From a virus: 64,000 nucleotides of DNA. Below, in pieces: positions 8,846 to 49,589 of this stretch. The stretch is from the UHGV virus genome UHGV-1370141; one strand, written 5' to 3'. Made by a program: the position numbers and the translations under genes. Under the pieces are notes generated by a model. It did not search any database. It saw only the letters and a program-made list of their open reading frames with translations, and had not been told where the DNA came from. Position 1 is the stretch's first letter, and each line of letters starts with the position of its first letter.

Positions 8846-8871
8846 CTCTCACCTAAGTAATATATATCTGA
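8846..8871 (-). promoter_or_regulatory. Conserved 26-bp promoter-like motif, copy 1 of 4
   Basis: Minus-strand TCAGATATATATTACTTAGGTGAGAG about 45 nt upstream of 8339..8800 start. Confidence 0.4.
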
Positions 8872-13180: not shown

Positions 13181-13203
13181 TCACTTAAGTAAAATATATC
13201 TGA
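13181..13203 (-). promoter_or_regulatory. Conserved promoter-like motif, copy 2 of 4 (diverged)
   Basis: Minus strand TCAGATATATTTTACTTAAGTGA in the divergent intergenic region; a 10-bp hairpin (13151-13180) lies adjacent. Confidence 0.35.
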
Positions 13204-34003: not shown

Positions 34004-34025
34004 ATAATTAATGGAGTCACCTGCA

Positions 34026-34949
34026 ATGGCGACCAATGCGGAACCAAAATTATCAGATCAGTTATTTGACAATCCAACAATATTAGCCGTTATTACTACA
34101 TCCAAATGTAATCTGGACTGTAGTTTCTGCGGCGGAGCCTATTACATGAATCGTGAAGATTCTTCTCGAGAGTTTCAACGTGACCGAATTATGGAGGCGT
34201 TAGAAGCTAACCCAACAATCACCGAGATTCAATGGACGGGTGGTGAGCCTTTGTTAGCCACTCGTAAAATTGAGGCGTTTGTTGACGAGTTAAAAGTAAT
34301 TCGTCCAGAGCTCAAACATCAGTTATATACCAACGGTTTAAAGATGCGTAAAACGCATCTCCCGTTGTTAAAACAATTTGATAATGTGTATGTTAGCATC
34401 GACGGGTTTGAGTTGTCTGAACGCCCTTTTAAGCGTTTTATTAACGATGGTTGCTACGAAGCTTTAGAAGTAATGCATGAGCTTGAAAATGTTCATACAT
34501 GGGCCGTTTTAACTCGAGAACAGTTGGGTAACAAACGGTGGCATGAAGACATTATTGAGCTTCATAATGCGATCTATCACTACGGTTATCGTACCATGAC
34601 GTTGCTGTTAGACGCGAATATGCCAAAACCGTTATCTCCCGATCACGTTATGAACTTTATTTACGGGTATTTTAGAATTCAGGAAAATATAGAAAGACTG
34701 AATGTTTCCAACTCGAAAAGGTGTGACTATGTCGTAAGCAAAGTTTTTGATGGTGGGTGTAACGTATGCAGCAATAGTTTATGGTTAAGAGCAGATGGAA
34801 CCGAATATCAGTTGCAAAATGCCCCGAGATTATTAGAATCGGGATGTAACCAATTAGCTTGTTCCATCGGGTTAGAAGCCTACGAGTATATTCGACGAGT
34901 GGTTATGGCCAACCGTAATAGTGGAGTATTAAATGAACCAAGAAAATAA
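34026..34949 (+). CDS. Radical SAM enzyme (paralog B)
   Basis: ATG at 34026 has GGAG RBS (track ATG 34011 has none); CNLDCSFCGG, GGEPLL; identical DNA tracts shared with paralog A. Confidence 0.75.
   Translation: MATNAEPKLSDQLFDNPTILAVITTSKCNLDCSFCGGAYYMNREDSSREFQRDRIMEALEANPTITEIQWTGGEPLLATRKIEAFVDELKVIRPELKHQLYTNGLKMRKTHLPLLKQFDNVYVSIDGFELSERPFKRFINDGCYEALEVMHELENVHTWAVLTREQLGNKRWHEDIIELHNAIYHYGYRTMTLLLDANMPKPLSPDHVMNFIYGYFRIQENIERLNVSNSKRCDYVVSKVFDGGCNVCSNSLWLRADGTEYQLQNAPRLLESGCNQLACSIGLEAYEYIRRVVMANRNSGVLNEPRK
34620..34702 (+). repeat. 83-nt tract identical to 32102..32184
   Basis: See paired repeat. Confidence 0.7.
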
Positions 34950-36255
34950 TTACCCGAAACAGTTGACTTACCAGATTGTTACAAACTTGTCGTGTAATTT
35001 GGACTGTGAGTATTGTTACGAGCGTAAATATCCCCGCAATAACAAAGCAGCAGATATTGTAGATTTTCTTCATGCCTGTTTCGAGCGTGATAAAGATTTA
35101 CCAAACGTAGAAGTCGTCATTGACATTATCGGCGGCGAGCCGTTTATGCAGCCTAAGCTTCTAATGGCCGCTTTCGAAACAGCCGAGCAGTTGTGTGAAG
35201 AACATAAACGCCCGTTTATGTTTAGTATCTCTACTAATGGGACATTATTAGATAGGCCGTTGAACAGGGAAATTATTGAACGTTGGAAGGACAGACTTTC
35301 TATCGGGGTGTCTATTGATGGGTTACCTGAGTCGCACGATAAGTACCGTATTTTTACAACGAGTCGCGAAGGTTCTTACGAGGCCGCTGTACGTGGTTAC
35401 AATTATCTAAAAGAAGTAGGTATCGCGGAGCTTGGGGTTAAAGCGACATTTACTTTGGAAACGCTCCCACATTATGCGGCGGGTATGAAATCCCTAATCG
35501 ATTTGGCTGGAGGTGGAACCATTTCTGGTAACGTAACCTTCGAAGACATTATGCCACGGAGTATGGCTACGTCGATAGCGCTACAAATGATGGATGTAGT
35601 CGATTATTGGGTTGAAAAGGGTTTACACACCAACCCACGTAATACCCTATCACATATCATCCCGGAAGGGTTAGATTTCGACACTATCTGGGAACCGAAC
35701 TGGCGGGATCAGCTACTTTACAACGATACTGTACGTTTAAACCCGGAACGCTTGCGTCCGTTCTGCGGGACATTAACTCACATGACTTGTTTAGGGTTTG
35801 ACAGGAAGATTTTCGGTTGTAACCGTTTCATGTCGACTGTAACGTCACGTTCTGCGGTATTTGAGTTAGTCGGTCGTGAGTTTGTTAGCTTAGACGGTGG
35901 GAAACTGCTGGAAGAGATTCAGACGCAATACACCAACTATCCTGAGACGTGCTTAGGTTGTCCGATGAAACACGCTTGTGGTAGCTGTGCAGCAGCTTCC
36001 TACGAGAATGGGGAAGGGACGTTAGAAGACCGTAAAGCGTATCACGCTGAACGTCGTCAATGTGGTTGGACAACTGCAAAATTAATGGTCGCGGAATACT
36101 GGAAACAGAAGATGGGTACAACATCTGTGAAGGATTTCCACGATAATAGCATGTGTTACTGCCCTCGCTGTGTACGTGAACGTGCCCAAAAAGAAAAACA
36201 ATTGAGAGAAGCCAAAGATGAAGCCAATTCTGATCCACAATATTACGAAGCGTAA
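34933..36255 (+). CDS. Radical SAM enzyme with C-terminal SPASM-like Cys cluster
   Basis: CNLDCEYC, GGEPFM; C-terminal FCGTLTHMTC...CLGCPMKHACGSC...CYCPRC; start overlaps upstream stop by 17 nt. Confidence 0.75.
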   Translation: MNQENNYPKQLTYQIVTNLSCNLDCEYCYERKYPRNNKAADIVDFLHACFERDKDLPNVEVVIDIIGGEPFMQPKLLMAAFETAEQLCEEHKRPFMFSISTNGTLLDRPLNREIIERWKDRLSIGVSIDGLPESHDKYRIFTTSREGSYEAAVRGYNYLKEVGIAELGVKATFTLETLPHYAAGMKSLIDLAGGGTISGNVTFEDIMPRSMATSIALQMMDVVDYWVEKGLHTNPRNTLSHIIPEGLDFDTIWEPNWRDQLLYNDTVRLNPERLRPFCGTLTHMTCLGFDRKIFGCNRFMSTVTSRSAVFELVGREFVSLDGGKLLEEIQTQYTNYPETCLGCPMKHACGSCAAASYENGEGTLEDRKAYHAERRQCGWTTAKLMVAEYWKQKMGTTSVKDFHDNSMCYCPRCVRERAQKEKQLREAKDEANSDPQYYEA

Positions 36256-36790
36256 ATTCCGTTTTCTGGAAAAGTTTTTAGAAACTACGAAACTGTTTGG
36301 CTGTTATGTGCAGATTAACGGCGAAGATTTCAATGACGATGTTAAGCGTTTATTAATTCGTCACGGAATCACCGTTGTTATCCCGATGTATTGTACAGAA
36401 CTTACCGAACTTTCTGTGGCCGAAATCGAGAAACAAAATCCAGGCTTTGAACAGCGCGTGCTGGAATTTCCTAAACATAAAATCGTTCTTTTACGCCGCG
36501 CTTTGCAAGAGCCGAGCGTTGAATCTGTTGCTGCTCTAGGTTTATCGTTTCCTGGTGTGACAATTTATGTCACACGAAACCCAGAGTCCACCATCGATGG
36601 TTTTTACGATGAAAGGGAAACTTTTCATAGTTTAGTTTATCCCGAGCTTACAGAAGACGAACGTCAAGGACTACATATTGACTGGGACTCAAATTTTGAT
36701 AGTAAGTTTCGTAAAATCGATTTTGATCTTCTGATCGAGCTGGGTTTAATTAAAGGAGAAGACGAATGCCTGCTCTTGACAAAAGCTTAA
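36218..36790 (+). CDS. Hypothetical protein (cluster-associated)
   Basis: 190 aa; overlaps upstream gene end, translationally coupled. Confidence 0.5.
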   Translation: MKPILIHNITKRKFRFLEKFLETTKLFGCYVQINGEDFNDDVKRLLIRHGITVVIPMYCTELTELSVAEIEKQNPGFEQRVLEFPKHKIVLLRRALQEPSVESVAALGLSFPGVTIYVTRNPESTIDGFYDERETFHSLVYPELTEDERQGLHIDWDSNFDSKFRKIDFDLLIELGLIKGEDECLLLTKA

Positions 36791-37440
36791 TAAACGAAGA
36801 TATTCGCGCCAGATTTTTTAGCCGACTTTCCCCAATTGATCGCCACGGAAACTTTTTGGGTCATATAGGTACTGAAGATCGCGGCAGAACGGGTTTTTGT
36901 ACAATGCTTCATTACAAACTACTCGATGGCATGTCCGATGAAGACGCGTTAGATCAAATGCGTAGTTACAATATGTCAGATATTGAAGCAAATTTCACCC
37001 TGAAAAAAGCAAAAGAGTTCATTTCAGATGTATTGGAGATAGATCTGGATGAAATTCGAAGTAACGTTCGTTCAACAGCACGATATATTTATTTAGATGT
37101 TCAAAAGATCATGAAGGCGTTGGAGTCGCGTTACGAAGCAGAACGTTACGAACCAATTCAGCTGAATGATCGTCATTTTCAGGCTGATGCAATCTCCCGA
37201 CAAATGTTAGGGCAATATATCCAATCTGAAACTGCGCCAGAATATTGGTTGGATACCGCCAATACGCGTTTAGAACCCTTTACATTAGAAGAATGTAAGG
37301 AACTATTGTCCGAGATCGTAAAACGTGATCAGAAACTGCATGGACAAATGACCGCGCAGAAAAAAGAGCTTCGCCTCTTAGCTGAACAGCGTGACTACGA
37401 CACTATCCGTGCACTTGCACTGGAAATGGGATTAGAATAA
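36766..37440 (+). CDS. Hypothetical protein (cluster-associated)
   Basis: 224 aa; AAGGAG RBS; followed by terminator. Confidence 0.55.
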   Translation: MPALDKSLINEDIRARFFSRLSPIDRHGNFLGHIGTEDRGRTGFCTMLHYKLLDGMSDEDALDQMRSYNMSDIEANFTLKKAKEFISDVLEIDLDEIRSNVRSTARYIYLDVQKIMKALESRYEAERYEPIQLNDRHFQADAISRQMLGQYIQSETAPEYWLDTANTRLEPFTLEECKELLSEIVKRDQKLHGQMTAQKKELRLLAEQRDYDTIRALALEMGLE

Positions 37441-37509: not shown

Positions 37510-38040
37510 TTAAGCAGTAAAACCGTCCAATTCACCGTTGGTGGTGGCCAGGTCAATACGATTATCGACAACCTTCGGTGTAATTACGAAAGTTGCCATT
37601 ACACCCGGTTTATAACGGAGGTTCTGTTCAGTAACGGTGCACGTCACGGTACGCAGAGTGACGTTTTCATGTTCGTCTTTCTGGTCTTCGGTGCTGTACA
37701 CAACGTCACCTGGCGCGATAGCGTCGTCAGGTTTTACTTTGTTGATGTAATATTGTAACCAAGCGCGGAGTTCGTTTTCTTGAACCCAGCGAGACAGATC
37801 ATCAGTTAGTTCAATCCGTCCTACAACACCTGGCTCCAGACGATCGTAATGCAGTTCGATTGCACCTTTGAAATTCTCAGAACCTGGTAGTGCAGTCATG
37901 GTAACTTTGGTATTCTTACTTTCGCCTTCCAGCGCAGTAGGGAGACCAAAGGACACTTCTTTATCAGTAATCTGATGTGGTAGCTCAGTGTTAGCAGCAT
38001 TATAAAGCGCGACCAACATCATCTGGTTAGTAGCGGCCAT
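37510..38040 (-). CDS. Hypothetical protein, paralog of 38112..38648 (C-terminal GELDGFTA)
   Basis: 176 aa; shared NTK(V/I)T(M/L)TA...NFKG...HY.RL and C-terminal GELDGFTA. Confidence 0.55.
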   Translation of the reverse strand: MAATNQMMLVALYNAANTELPHQITDKEVSFGLPTALEGESKNTKVTMTALPGSENFKGAIELHYDRLEPGVVGRIELTDDLSRWVQENELRAWLQYYINKVKPDDAIAPGDVVYSTEDQKDEHENVTLRTVTCTVTEQNLRYKPGVMATFVITPKVVDNRIDLATTNGELDGFTA

Positions 38041-38089
38041 TATCTTAGGTCCTTAATAGAACAAGTTAGAGAAATATCGGGGGAGGTCA

Positions 38090-38099
38090 CCCCCCCCCC
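38090..38099. repeat. C10 homopolymer in conserved intergenic context TCA-C(n)-GATT
   Basis: Read directly; preceded by GGGGGAGG giving a G/C hairpin; about 50 nt upstream of 37510..38040 start. Confidence 0.8.
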
Positions 38100-38111
38100 G
38101 ATTTAACTTAC

Positions 38112-38648
38112 TTAGCCACCGACACCCGGCGCAGTGAAGCCATCAAGTTCACCTTCCAGACCGCCCAGTGCTACCTTCTCAGGAGCTGGGTTGGAATAAG
38201 TGAAAGTAGCAATAGTACCCGCCAGGAATTTAATGTGGCCATCGTTTACTTTGACAGTGTAAACTTTAGCACCGCTGTCGCCTTCGGATTTAACGATAGT
38301 GAGTTCGCTCTCTGCAAACGCGTCATCGACATAACCTTTAGTAACCATTTCTTTGTTCAGTTTGGTTACAATGGCAGAGTTTTCCAGATCGAGACTACCA
38401 GCTTGTTCGTAAGCTTTAGCACCGATCAGGTCTTGGGATGCCAGACGGATATAATGGAATTCTTTCTCGCCTTTGAAGTTCTGGCTTTCTGCCTTGGCGG
38501 TCAGTGTAATTTTGGTGTTACGACCAGCGTCTCCGCTGTGCGCTTCGACAGCACCAAAATCGACATCACCAACCGTCAGATTAGAAGCGGTTGCAGAGTT
38601 TTTAGCAATTACAGCTTCGATGAGCTGTTGTTTGAAGGCTTTAGCCAT
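38112..38648 (-). CDS. Hypothetical protein, paralog of 37510..38040
   Basis: ATG at 38648 has GAGG RBS (track start 38684 lacks one); C-terminal GELDGFTA. Confidence 0.55.
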   Translation of the reverse strand: MAKAFKQQLIEAVIAKNSATASNLTVGDVDFGAVEAHSGDAGRNTKITLTAKAESQNFKGEKEFHYIRLASQDLIGAKAYEQAGSLDLENSAIVTKLNKEMVTKGYVDDAFAESELTIVKSEGDSGAKVYTVKVNDGHIKFLAGTIATFTYSNPAPEKVALGGLEGELDGFTAPGVGG

Positions 38649-38786
38649 CTTTTTTACCTCGTAAGTGGTAGGGGTGGATTGCATAAGAAAGTTATTTTAG
38701 ACATTTCCTAAAATATAGATATGACGGTTGGCAGTAGGCGCTAACCTGAAAAAATAATTTTTCTTAATTTTAATAAGGGTGAGTTT

Positions 38787-39266
38787 ATGCTAAAACGCAT
38801 TCTCGTGGTCGTTGCTTTTGTAATGACGTTGGCAGGTTGTGCTATTCAGCCGAACGCAGAAGGTCAGTTCTCCACCGTACCTGTTGACCAACATGATATG
38901 GTCATTTACACCTGTACAGGTGCTTCTCAAGAATTCGTCGATTTTAAACCGGTACCGTCTAGCCTAAAACTGATGCCCCTTTCGGTGTTAGTCATGGATA
39001 CAGGGGCGAATTGGGTCGCTACATGGGACGAAGGTAAAATCGAATCTCCGCAACTTTATAAAGACCTGTTAGGTAAGGTGGACGGTAACTTAAACGTTGT
39101 TACCGGTGAGCGCTATTACCGTGTAAACGGGTTACTGTCAAAAACTCCAACGTTTGCGTATTCTACCATCAACTACAAAACAGGTGAAGGTAAAGGTGTA
39201 ACGTTCTTCAGATGTCACGAAGGTAGCATTCCGGATACCGGCACTATGCTGCACCCGGTAGAATAA
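38787..39266 (+). CDS. Lipoprotein (lipobox LAGC), isolated on opposite strand
   Basis: MLKRILVVVAFVMTLAGCA signal with lipobox; own terminator downstream. Confidence 0.6.
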   Translation: MLKRILVVVAFVMTLAGCAIQPNAEGQFSTVPVDQHDMVIYTCTGASQEFVDFKPVPSSLKLMPLSVLVMDTGANWVATWDEGKIESPQLYKDLLGKVDGNLNVVTGERYYRVNGLLSKTPTFAYSTINYKTGEGKGVTFFRCHEGSIPDTGTMLHPVE

Positions 39267-39269
39267 TAA

Positions 39270-39307
39270 ATACCCTCCTGCTTAGCAGGAGGGTAGGTTT
39301 ATTTTGT
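39270..39307. terminator. Bidirectional intrinsic terminator
   Basis: Hairpin ACCCTCCTGC-tta-GCAGGAGGGT then TTTATTTT; A/T-rich on both sides. Confidence 0.65.
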
Positions 39308-39386
39308 CCGTAGAACGCGCTAGAACGCGTTCTAAGACGGTTTATACAAAATAAGGTACAATCATCCTAAGTTTCGGTTTACGCGC

Positions 39387-39902
39387 TTAGATTTTAACTA
39401 AGGCGCTCCAATCGATAGGGCTTTGTTTCACGACTTTCGCAGTACCGCGATTCGGTGACCAGAACGTGATATTCGGTTGGTTACGAACGTCGATATGCAA
39501 CCAACTGATGTCGCATTCGATAAAGTGAATAAACGGAAACTCATCAGGATTAGCGGCAATATAATCGTGGACTTGTTTTACCGTTGAATCTAACAGTGTC
39601 GCGTCGAACGCATTACCGAACTTGTGCTGACTCCCTGAATCGGAATAGAGTTGTAACGCACGTTGTTTATAGTTACCGCCCTTAGGCTTTTCTTGATTGA
39701 TGAAAAAGTCTAAGGTTCTTAGGCCACGCTGTTGCGCAGCAGACGAGTTAATCACCATTCTGCCGAAACGGTTACGAATCTGTTGCAGCGAAATCATTAA
39801 CAACGGGTTCATAAACCGAATTGCAGAATCACCGTATTTGGCGATGTACGATTGCGGTACTAACTCTTTGAGTTTAAAGTTACTCGGATTTGGATGAAAC
39901 AT
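39387..39902 (-). CDS. Peptidase M15 (VanY / L-Ala-D-Glu peptidase-like) cell-wall hydrolase, putative endolysin
   Basis: SQHKFGNAFDATL matches M15 S.H..G.A.D zinc-binding motif; C-terminal WLHIDV. Confidence 0.55.
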   Translation of the reverse strand: MFHPNPSNFKLKELVPQSYIAKYGDSAIRFMNPLLMISLQQIRNRFGRMVINSSAAQQRGLRTLDFFINQEKPKGGNYKQRALQLYSDSGSQHKFGNAFDATLLDSTVKQVHDYIAANPDEFPFIHFIECDISWLHIDVRNQPNITFWSPNRGTAKVVKQSPIDWSALVKI

Positions 39903-40545: not shown

Positions 40546-40661
40546 TACCCACACCTTTCCTTACAAAAACCAGAAGAACTCTTGCCCACGCTTTTCGTCT
40601 TTACGTTTTCGACCAGACGTTAACGCTTTCCACAATAACGCTAAGAGTTTAGCAAACCAGT

Positions 40662-41252
40662 TCATTTTACTAACCCCGCTTTTACCGCATAATCTGCCAT
40701 TTCTCTGAAGACGCGGCCGTACCAACCGTAGGTGTATTTCTCGTTTCTCTTACGTTTTTCGGAGATTTCCGTGTAGTAAGTTACTTGGTGCGAGATTAAC
40801 GCAAAGATTAAAATGCTCAACCCTTCATCTTTACGATATTTCAGGTAGGCGTTCAACGCACCCAGTGTCTTAGGACCCATACCGCCGTCGGTGTCAATAT
40901 CTGCGTAAAGTTTCCCTTCGTTATTTAAAACGTTGAGAATACGTTGTAACGATTTCACACAGTTAGCACGCCCTGCGTTAATACCAAAATCAAACATCCG
41001 GTCTGCGAGTAACGGTGAGATAGCGAAAATCTCATCAAGTTTGAGCTTCTTCCACCAACCGCGATCGTAAATATCAAACGCTTGTGCACGGGTGAGGTCT
41101 TTCATTTTCCCTGTGTAGCCGTATTCGCGTGCAGTAGTTAAAGTTACACCGTGACAGGTTTCTCCACCTTTGTCGTCAGGGTCGTTGACGTACCCGCCTT
41201 CTAAATCCGTTTTGGATTCAATAATACCTTCTTTAGTCCAACGTTCAGCCAT
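40662..41252 (-). CDS. Glycoside hydrolase family 108-like lysozyme with C-terminal peptidoglycan-binding domain
   Basis: N-terminal EGGYVNDPDDKGGETCHGVT typical of GH108; C-terminal DTDGGMGPKTLGALNAYL typical of PG_binding_3. Confidence 0.7.
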   Translation of the reverse strand: MAERWTKEGIIESKTDLEGGYVNDPDDKGGETCHGVTLTTAREYGYTGKMKDLTRAQAFDIYDRGWWKKLKLDEIFAISPLLADRMFDFGINAGRANCVKSLQRILNVLNNEGKLYADIDTDGGMGPKTLGALNAYLKYRKDEGLSILIFALISHQVTYYTEISEKRKRNEKYTYGWYGRVFREMADYAVKAGLVK

Positions 41253-41315: not shown

Positions 41316-41795
41316 TTATTTTTTCTTCTTAGCGCGTGATGGCTTAGCTGGCGGTGTTTCAACAGCCGGTTTACGTGCAACACGCACTGTAAAACCACCA
41401 ACCCAGGTCAGACACTCAGGACGGAAGAAAATACCGTGTTCGATTGCGCTACCGTCCAACGGTAACTCACCAACCTGTTCTACCCATACATCGTCTTCTG
41501 TAAGGGTTAGGCTATACTGTTCGTTAATTACGGGCAGTAGGTCAGCGGTAGTCGTTGCAGACTCCACTAACAGTTTCGGTAATACGTTCAGGAAATACAA
41601 ACCTGCGTCAATGCGGTTATACTGGAACGTTTGTTCGTTAGTGTAACCGAGATTCTTAATTGACGCAACTGTGATTTCGGTATTGTACGTACCGGTGGTT
41701 ACGACCGGGTCACCCAGCGTGACTTTGGTGGTGTCGAACTCAGCGTCTGGGTTAGCCTTTTTAATAAGGTCGAAGATAGTTTCTTGATTGGTCAT
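41316..41795 (-). CDS. Hypothetical protein (Lys-rich C-terminus)
   Basis: 159 aa; AGAGGA RBS; C-terminal PAKPSRAKKKK. Confidence 0.55.
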   Translation of the reverse strand: MTNQETIFDLIKKANPDAEFDTTKVTLGDPVVTTGTYNTEITVASIKNLGYTNEQTFQYNRIDAGLYFLNVLPKLLVESATTTADLLPVINEQYSLTLTEDDVWVEQVGELPLDGSAIEHGIFFRPECLTWVGGFTVRVARKPAVETPPAKPSRAKKKK

Positions 41796-41808
41796 TACTG
41801 TAATCCTC

Positions 41809-42657
41809 TTAATCTAAGAATCCCGGTAAGACCGGATTAGTCTGCGCTAATTCAATCTTCGACTTCGGACGATCGGTGCCGTTAAAGTGGATTAACAGAT
41901 TACCGGTCAGGTTAGAACACAGCGGGCTGAGCGTCAGCACCAACACACGCGTGAACTTCGTATTTGCGCCTTCGTAACCTGCGGTTGGACCATCGTAAAT
42001 AATCTTCGCACCATACAGGTTGTTAGCCGCGTTCTTAGGTACACTTACCCATTTCTCATCAACGACGTTAGCCAGTTTAGTGGCTAACTCAGCCAGGTCG
42101 ACGGTGTCGTTGATAGTAATCGGGTCAAGGTAATCTTTTTCTGCGGTGAAATCAATCGGGTGAGAATAAACCGCAGCGTTACCTTTCTTAGTAGACGGAT
42201 ACTCTACCAGATTCTCTAATTGAGTAACTGGTAACAGTTCAGTCAGGTCAATAGGATCACGCAGCGTAAGTGTTACTACACCGCACCACTCGTAAGATTT
42301 CTCGTTAGCGGTAAGCTGATGGGTTTCACCTTCAACTTTTGCGTCAACGATATCCGAGGGTAAAATATTTAGGTTGTATTTTGCGTTAATCGCATTAAGC
42401 AAATCCGATGCGGTTACCACACTGTCGTTACCGAACACCAACTCACCGGTTAGGTAGTCAGGTAAATTACGACGGTGGTAAGTCACGGTTAAAGTAGTAG
42501 ACTCATCGCCTTTGAGTTTAGAGGTCAGAACCACCTGGGTATCAACCCCAGTACCGGTAGGTTCTCCGATATCAACATCACTGAAAGTCAACGGTGGACT
42601 AATATTGTTTTCAGTGTTGATGAGTTTTAGCAGTTTCTGTTTTGACGTAAGAGACAT
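41809..42657 (-). CDS. Hypothetical protein
   Basis: 282-aa ORF. Confidence 0.55.
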   Translation of the reverse strand: MSLTSKQKLLKLINTENNISPPLTFSDVDIGEPTGTGVDTQVVLTSKLKGDESTTLTVTYHRRNLPDYLTGELVFGNDSVVTASDLLNAINAKYNLNILPSDIVDAKVEGETHQLTANEKSYEWCGVVTLTLRDPIDLTELLPVTQLENLVEYPSTKKGNAAVYSHPIDFTAEKDYLDPITINDTVDLAELATKLANVVDEKWVSVPKNAANNLYGAKIIYDGPTAGYEGANTKFTRVLVLTLSPLCSNLTGNLLIHFNGTDRPKSKIELAQTNPVLPGFLD

Positions 42658-46019: not shown

Positions 46020-46045
46020 CTCTCACCTAAGTAATATATATCTGA
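46020..46045 (-). promoter_or_regulatory. Conserved 26-bp promoter-like motif, copy 3 of 4
   Basis: Minus strand TCAGATATATATTACTTAGGTGAGAG about 50 nt upstream of 45480..45974. Confidence 0.4.
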
Positions 46046-49563: not shown

Positions 49564-49589
49564 CTCTCCCCTAGGTAATATATATCTGA
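49564..49589 (-). promoter_or_regulatory. Conserved 26-bp promoter-like motif, copy 4 of 4
   Basis: Minus strand TCAGATATATATTACCTAGGGGAGAG about 65 nt upstream of 49054..49497. Confidence 0.4.

Follow-up and report, generated by a model that had tools for sequence, protein, structure and literature searches.

What does a small lipoprotein gene, standing alone between genes of the opposite strand, do for the phage that carries it? The question is raised by a locus in UHGV-1370141, a virus genome of which we analyzed a stretch of 64,000 nucleotides (hereafter the window) and whose sequence identifies it as an SPN3US-like jumbo phage (Chimalliviridae). The gene encodes a predicted lipoprotein of 159 amino acids that belongs to an already catalogued, phage-specific family, of which the window protein is another member. 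Our favored reading, to which we assign a probability of roughly 0.35, is that the lipoprotein is a late, outer-membrane-anchored factor that may make the infected cell, or the debris it leaves behind, refractory to further phage attack. The evidence that bears on this reading, and on several rivals, is considered below.

The N-terminus of the predicted product consists of a basic n-region (MLKR), a ten-residue hydrophobic core (ILVVVAFVMT) and the lipobox LAGC, which ends in Cys18. This arrangement agrees with the signal peptidase II pattern [LVI][ASTVI][GAS]C, whose Cys has to fall within positions 15-35. When all open reading frames of at least 40 amino acids in the six frames of the window were scanned with a PROSITE-style lipobox rule, only the lipoprotein gene and one antisense junk reading frame matched. 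The lipobox Cys is invariant in 30 of the 30 homologues that we examined. Thus, the plus-strand lipoprotein gene with an LAGC lipobox that an earlier note on this DNA had described is a real open reading frame with a canonical signal peptide, and its product is predicted to be acylated, and cleaved by LspA, at Cys18. The residue that follows the lipidated Cys (position +2) is Ala in the window protein and Ala, Val, Ser or Thr in its relatives. It is never Asp, so that an outer-membrane destination is expected under the +2 rule and the lipoprotein is probably located there.

The lipoprotein is a homologue of SPN3US_0159 (gp159) and of Asesino gp174, with 56-60% identity and a matching genomic position. 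It matches the profile of PHROG 9559 over its full length (E = 1.7e-71, residues 2-150); neither this PHROG nor the UniRef entry, which is named 'Lipoprotein', carries an assigned function. Using tblastn, we observed a homologue in 55 phage records, all of them jumbo phages of about 240 kb that infect Salmonella, Erwinia, Escherichia or Proteus, among them SPN3US (Seoulvirus), Asesino and phiEaH2 (Erskinevirus), Wellington and Kwan. The gene occupies the matching syntenic slot across these records, which span several genera. A megablast search of the phage collection with the 3.2-kb region returned no match because the relatives are too diverged at the DNA level, and an alignment-based search for the locus returned matches from the same clade only. 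Homologues form 17 clusters in a set of 5.8 billion proteins and have 14 representatives in a set of 1.84 billion; in these two sets we saw no cellular homologues, and all family members with an identifiable context lie on phage-type contigs. Near-identical copies (97-99%) are found on contigs of about 223-227 kb, both from metagenomes and from Salmonella isolate assemblies. Taken together with a ratio of nonsynonymous to synonymous substitution rates (dN/dS) of 0.09-0.11, which indicates purifying selection, these data show a long-standing phage gene, present in nearly all relatives of SPN3US, rather than a recent acquisition.

Two side observations concern the family. The cluster of a 97%-identical protein (P0001) has 308 member sequences, some of them labelled as Salmonella enterica serovar Agona isolates with contigs of up to 227 kb, and these Salmonella-labelled copies suggest that sequencing of Salmonella cultures often captures the jumbo phage as well, as a carrier state or pseudolysogeny would allow. 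Two further proteins, P0024 and P0027, are made up of segments of the family in scrambled order, in 7-8 separate matched stretches, and are probably assembly artefacts and not real genes.

The upstream regions of the lipoprotein gene are diverged among the aligned relatives except for TATGAC, their only contiguous invariant block. In 15 of 15 related loci this hexamer precedes the ATG by 38-71 nucleotides, even where the remaining spacer cannot be aligned. It is no general motif of the window, where it occurs six times, twice in intergenic positions; we take it to be meaningful because it is conserved in the relatives, and not from these counts. The late-promoter consensus of phiKZ, which serves as the model for phages of this kind, is TATG overlapping the transcription start, and such phages transcribe with their own RNA polymerases (PMC7598289). 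We infer that TATGAC may be a late promoter of the lipoprotein gene and that the gene is probably transcribed late, together with the head genes. The divergent head gene has a similar motif on the minus strand, which in relatives other than those that share the TGCATA of the window reads TATGA(A/C/G) or TATGT. At the other end of the gene, a terminator hairpin begins four bases past the double TAA stop, provides a T-run on either strand, and folds far more stably than shuffled controls (z = -7.9). Relatives likewise have a GC-rich hairpin and a T-tract at the matching position, with stems that differ in sequence. The strong bidirectional terminator of the earlier note is thereby borne out, and the lipoprotein gene is a monocistronic unit bounded by the conserved TATGAC motif and a two-way terminator.

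This unit is flanked by 38112-38684 on one side and by 39387-39902 on the other, two minus-strand genes. The same note had placed the gene between leftward blocks, and for the immediate flanks this is correct; the left block, however, consists of only two genes (37510-38684), beyond which a long rightward block (15986-37440) begins. That block ends, on the plus strand, with two radical-SAM genes, a 190-amino-acid gene and a DUF4376 gene, the last lying 1.3 kb upstream of the lipoprotein gene. It is followed by two small DUF7941 genes on the minus strand, by the lipoprotein gene, and then, all on the minus strand, by genes for an M15-like peptidase and a DUF1353 protein, a 34-codon open reading frame, a GH108 endolysin gene and further DUF7941 genes. 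This order recurs in SPN3US, Asesino and close relatives, in which only the DUF7941 copy number varies, from one to three. In distant relatives, by comparison, the lipoprotein gene is co-oriented with the genes upstream of it. Among distant homologues (31-41% identity), that of L004 comes immediately after a tail-fibre gene and a DUF4376 gene of like orientation, that of L007 lies between DUF7941 genes, and that of L035 is the last gene of a DUF7941 array and is convergent with the M15-like gene. Because the distant homologues are arranged in these other ways, the isolated, opposite-strand appearance is a local feature of this clade, and the gene is best seen as the last of the rightward block, cut off by a two-gene leftward insert.

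We also compared the locus with that of the close relative L011. At the protein level the flanking genes are 93-99% identical, whereas the lipoprotein is 72%, the DUF4376 protein 61% and the product of the 190-amino-acid gene 74% identical. Synonymous sites of the lipoprotein gene are saturated (dS of about 2.5) and dN/dS is 0.09, indicating that the allele was replaced by recombination and not changed by positive selection. The lipoprotein gene is part of an island prone to recombination, with the head-paralogue and fibre region on one side and the lysis genes on the other, and allele replacement in such a mosaic island is the pattern seen for host-interface genes. Mosaicism extends to the large candidate baseplate or fibre genes, which are homologues of SPN3US gp168-170.

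The AlphaFold2 model of the lipoprotein is all-beta, with about ten strands between residues 28 and 145, a mean predicted local distance difference test score of 80.9 and a core above 90. Residues invariant across the family are the lipobox Cys, Cys43, Cys143, G73, R109, Y111, R112, S126, G133 and G135, and Cys43 and Cys143 probably form a disulfide that staples the barrel. The C-terminal tail is predicted to be disordered, ends in the hydrophilic ...GSIPDTGTMLHPVE and contains no transmembrane segment; some Erwinia phages have it as a long extension rich in Pro, Ala and Thr. A Foldseek search of the PDB gave no match below E = 0.05, with lipocalins ranked highest (probability 0.8-0.9). Likewise, the lipoprotein had no match in Pfam, NCBIfam or PADLOC, and in a profile search of PDB sequences only its signal peptide matched, to TrwH. 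Matches in BFVD were to its own family and, weakly, to other small phage proteins, including a protein of RB49 labelled 'lysozyme inhibitor LprI-like'. As modeled, the fold is a generic lipocalin-like barrel, and fold searches point to no specific function.

On the exclusion reading, the precursor would be exported by Sec and, following established rules, acylated and processed at Cys18 by Lgt, LspA and Lnt. With Ala rather than Asp at +2, Lol would then deliver it to the inner leaflet of the outer membrane, where a beta-barrel of about 118 residues, probably stapled by an oxidized Cys43-Cys143 pair, would face the periplasm. The gene would be transcribed late by the non-virion RNA polymerase of the phage, alongside those for head proteins. 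The barrel could then bind a conserved envelope component, for instance an entry receptor of the outer membrane, on its periplasmic side, or some other part of the route by which the phage penetrates. Once lysis sets in, sister virions would then be neither taken up nor inactivated by the infected cell and its debris. The outcome would be superinfection exclusion or progeny protection, resembling that of T5 Llp in effect and brought about by an unrelated protein.

Several observations favor this reading. Among the roles known for non-spanin lipoproteins in virulent phages, exclusion and protection of progeny, as by T5 Llp and by Cor of T1, phi80 and N15, is the most economical one. Like these proteins, the lipoprotein is small, comes from a virulent phage, is not detected in the virion, and is predicted to act at the periplasmic face of the outer membrane. 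In T5, llp is a stand-alone gene divergent from a virion gene, oad, and the lipoprotein gene of the window is likewise stand-alone and divergent from a virion gene. The divergent DUF7941 neighbor is homologous to SPN3US gp160, a member of "paralog family B" that is abundant in the head, where each capsid has more than 300 copies (PMC5694885), and the M15-like neighbor corresponds to gp158, a virion protein that is missing from tailless particles (PMC5105663). Unlike these two, gp159 was not found in the main texts and searchable supplementary tables of the published virion proteome (PMC5694885, PMC5105663), and by that search the lipoprotein is not structural. The mosaic behavior of the gene and its link to the tail-fibre-associated DUF4376 gene also fit an exclusion role, as does the succession of tail-fibre, DUF4376 and lipoprotein genes in L004. 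Finally, SPN3US virions at high multiplicity cause lysis from without, such that protection of the envelope would be useful.

Other observations weigh against an exclusion role. PHROG, hhalign and Foldseek linked the lipoprotein neither by sequence nor by a specific fold to Llp, to Cor or to any other exclusion protein. Homology to Llp is rejected at the sequence level, since hhalign of the family profile aligned only 11 residues of the lipobox (probability 8%); PHROG gave no match to Llp or Cor, all hits besides PHROG 9559 covering the signal peptide only, and the mature protein has about 141 amino acids compared with 61 for Llp. The divergent neighbor is a homologue of a head protein and not a receptor-binding protein. 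Known exclusion genes such as T5 llp are early, while the motif upstream of the lipoprotein gene is of the late type; the early-promoter-like motif CAGATATATATTAC, which is present elsewhere in the window, is absent there. In Derbicusvirus (Cronobacter phage CR5 and its relatives) the DUF4376, DUF1353 and M15-like genes are present and the lipoprotein gene is absent. The lipoprotein allele does not strictly co-vary with the alleles of the fibre candidates, and between genera the lipoprotein is about as conserved as the endolysin (56-64%; 56-60% between Salmonella and Erwinia phages), which is more in keeping with a conserved target than with a variable receptor. The reported receptor of SPN3US, the model relative, is the flagellum (PMC11428620), which a lipoprotein facing the periplasm cannot directly mask. 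An exclusion role by receptor blocking, as the earlier note had suggested, is plausible. In a stronger form, which we think unlikely, nucleus-forming jumbo phages would have in this lipoprotein their first factor for exclusion or progeny protection at the level of the envelope, made late and with a barrel unrelated to Llp and Cor. Its target would be one that Enterobacterales have in common, such as a secondary receptor in the outer membrane, the basal body or stator of the flagellum (these phages being flagellotropic), or the wall-degrading enzyme of the virion itself.

In a rival explanation, the periplasmic barrel would inhibit a peptidoglycan hydrolase of the phage, in the manner of T4 Spackle or of MliC, PliC and PhiA. 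The enzyme blocked could be the virion-borne M15-like peptidase, the GH108 endolysin or a tail transglycosylase, and the effect would be either to halt superinfecting phages, or lysis from without, when the wall is to be penetrated, or to adjust the timing of lysis. We consider this unlikely. The protein does share traits with MliC, in that both are lipoproteins, have a Y-x-C in one of the early strands and end the last strand with a Cys; the RB49 match in BFVD carries an inhibitor label; and the convergent junction of lipoprotein and M15-like genes is old, being found in the window, SPN3US, L035 and L008. The SPN3US product of that M15-like gene, gp158, is moreover a tail-associated virion protein of a phage that causes lysis from without. 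Against this, Pfam MliC (PF09864) had no match at E up to 10 (16 family members searched), and in hhalign against a purpose-built MliC family alignment only the signal peptides aligned, the mature domains reaching a probability of 0.7%, such that homology to MliC/PliC is rejected at the sequence level. The barrel is also about 30 residues larger than that of MliC/PliC/PhiA, the inhibitory loop motifs SGSGAxY and YxxxTKG are absent, and in the Foldseek search lipocalins rank as well as anything. The two genes are not always found together: Asesino-type phages keep the lipoprotein with no M15-like match at the locus, or at E <= 1e-10 in the phage collection, and CR5-type phages have the M15-like gene without the lipoprotein. 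Spackle remains a possible analogy, as a periplasmic phage protein that shields the infected cell from the wall enzyme of incoming virions, here with the gene adjoining that of a virion M15-like peptidase. Spackle itself is helical and soluble and is not a lipoprotein, and no homology between the two is expected.

The ranking of lipocalins in the fold search speaks for another explanation that we likewise regard as improbable, namely that the lipoprotein is a ligand-binding barrel of the lipocalin, fatty acid-binding protein or YceI type. Such a barrel could sequester a lipid, an isoprenoid or an envelope precursor, or could stabilize the envelope of a cell crowded with giant virions. The invariant R109-Y-Y111-R112, which lies on one strand, appears to resemble carboxylate- or phosphate-binding motifs. 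We know of no phage precedent for such a protein, which counts against this explanation.

A role as a lysis accessory, in which a late outer-membrane lipoprotein disrupts the outer membrane, or times its disruption, together with the GH108 endolysin, the 34-amino-acid cationic peptide and the DUF1353 protein, is in our view distinctly improbable. The endolysin gene lies less than 2 kb away in every relative, the promoter motif is of the late type, and o-spanins are the commonest phage lipoproteins. Like o-spanins (lambda Rz1 type) and u-spanins (T1 gp11), the protein has an outer-membrane lipoprotein signal, a phage origin and an endolysin gene close by. Its architecture, however, excludes spanin identity: no open reading frame for an i-spanin or other inner-membrane partner adjoins or overlaps the gene, the C-terminus is hydrophilic and lacks a membrane anchor, and the protein is a compact globular barrel with an apparently intramolecular Cys pair and not a short Pro-rich o-spanin. 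The sole PHROG spanin match covers the signal peptide alone (E = 0.094), and in distant relatives the gene lies among genes for virion paralogues and not among lysis genes. SPN3US also has a separate candidate pair of adjacent i-spanin and o-spanin genes, far from the endolysin (L018 33017-33976, which is SPN3US 180017-180976). The first gene of this pair encodes 156 amino acids, which comprise a transmembrane segment at the N-terminus, a stretch resembling a coiled coil and a tail rich in Pro, and the second encodes a 159-amino-acid lipoprotein with the lipobox LTGC; both genes fall in PHROGs of unknown function, and from these features they look like separated spanins. The clearest predicted outer-membrane lipoproteins of SPN3US are gp159 and one other, and a third coding sequence has a weaker lipobox.

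The 'moron-like' label that the earlier note had attached to the gene does not hold, and a true moron, meaning recently acquired cargo that benefits the host and is driven by a host-type promoter, is very improbable: although the gene has its own promoter region and terminator, sits at a rearrangement junction and is absent from Derbicusvirus, its GC content (0.458 versus 0.449) is native to the phage, its third-position GC content and codon-adaptation index are indistinguishable from those of its neighbors, its slot is fixed in the 55 records, no cellular homologues were seen, the sigma-70-like match upstream is weak (9/12) and not conserved in aligned relatives that all retain TATGAC, and the phages concerned are virulent and transcribe with RNA polymerases of their own. 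The gene is not moron-like because of this native composition, fixed synteny and phage-type promoter motif.

The coordinates of the features discussed here are collected in Table 1.

Table 1. Features of the lipoprotein locus and of its surroundings, in positions of the window.
Feature	Position	Strand	Remarks
Lipoprotein precursor, coding sequence	38787..39266	+	159 amino acids; ATG start; TAA stop, then a second TAA; PHROG 9559 and dN/dS
Predicted signal peptide, residues 1-17	38787..38837	+	Read off the sequence; Cys invariant in the family; lipobox scan
Lipobox L-A-G-C, codons 15-18	38829-38840	+	Cys18 codon at 38838-38840
Predicted mature lipoprotein, Cys18 to Glu159	38838..39263	+	Linker, beta-barrel (about 28-145), disordered tail; AlphaFold2 model and invariant columns
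Shine-Dalgarno-like purine-rich AAGGGTGAG	38775..38783	+	3 nucleotides before the ATG of the lipoprotein gene; read off the sequence
TATGAC, late-promoter-like motif (phiKZ-type T-3 A T G+1)	38720..38725	+	67 nucleotides upstream of the lipoprotein ATG; conservation
TATGCA, late-promoter-like motif of the divergent head-paralogue gene	38680..38685	-	TGCATA kept in the window and in L020-L026
Two-way intrinsic terminator hairpin	39271..39295	both	11-bp stem with 7 GC pairs, loop TTA, A/T-rich arms on both sides
Second hairpin: tandem direct repeat TAGAACGCG x2 containing the perfect palindrome AGAACGCGTTCT	39311..39334		Just past the terminator
M15-like peptidase gene	39387-39902	-	Convergent with the lipoprotein gene
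GH108 endolysin gene	40662-41252	-	
190-amino-acid gene	36218-36790	+	
34-codon open reading frame MNWFAKLLALLWKALTSGRKRKDEKRGQEFFWFL	40561-40665	-	Between the endolysin and DUF1353 genes; 4-nucleotide overlap with the endolysin stop codon
AT-rich CAGATATATATTAC, exact copy	8857-8870	-	Before another operon
AT-rich CAGATATATATTAC, one mismatch	13189-13202	-	Before another operon
AT-rich CAGATATATATTAC, exact copy	46031-46044	-	Before another operon
AT-rich CAGATATATATTAC, exact copy	49575-49588	-	Before another operon

Some features in the neighborhood are recorded here in their own right. The exact palindrome AGAACGCGTTCT of the second hairpin is unique in the window, and neither this conserved palindrome nor the motif AACGCNNTCTAA is enriched elsewhere in the window. 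The hairpin core, AACGC..TCTAA, is kept in five diverged phages and has no further copy in the window; a protein may bind there, or the core could be an element of the 3' untranslated region of the minus-strand operon. An Rfam search of 36-42 kb of the window gave no match. The motif CAGATATATATTAC is followed by TTAGG(T/G)GAGAG in its three exact copies and is preceded, in at least two of its spacers, by a terminator-like hairpin just upstream. It looks like an early promoter consensus, used by the virion RNA polymerase, and fits the description of jumbo-phage early promoters; at up to 3 mismatches it has 7 matches compared with 5.3 expected from shuffles, which is no enrichment.

The DUF7941 genes lie at 37510-38684 and 41316-42657. 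Just upstream of the lipoprotein gene there is one such gene in SPN3US, two in the window and three in L011, and this variable copy number indicates local duplication and loss at the junction. For the nearer of the two in the window (38112-38684, minus strand), the called start at 38684 is probably wrong: relatives start at an internal MAKAF..., corresponding to the ATG at 38648, which is preceded by GAGG, and a start there would make the divergent spacer 138 rather than 102 nucleotides long. The M15-like and DUF1353 block is inverted relative to CR5. The two radical-SAM genes (the second with a Cys-rich C-terminus), the 190-amino-acid gene and the DUF4376 gene form a conserved cassette (34011-37440) that adjoins the fibre and head-paralogue region, and the final two rank with the most variable genes when close relatives are compared (52-74% identity, compared with 93-99% for the flanks). 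The 34-codon open reading frame is called as a 34-amino-acid gene in all close relatives and in Asesino (gp172) and has no PHROG match. Its predicted product is cationic and amphipathic and could be a membrane-active lysis peptide, either holin-like or disruptin-like.

A 2026 review of jumbo phages does not mention superinfection exclusion or spanins and refers to lysis once in passing. The lipoprotein gives a well-defined handle on how giant phages alter the host envelope late in infection. If it does not block infection, it would be one more conserved gene without an assigned function. A block of adsorption or of wall penetration, if there is one, would bear on the use of SPN3US-like phages in cocktails against Salmonella and Erwinia.
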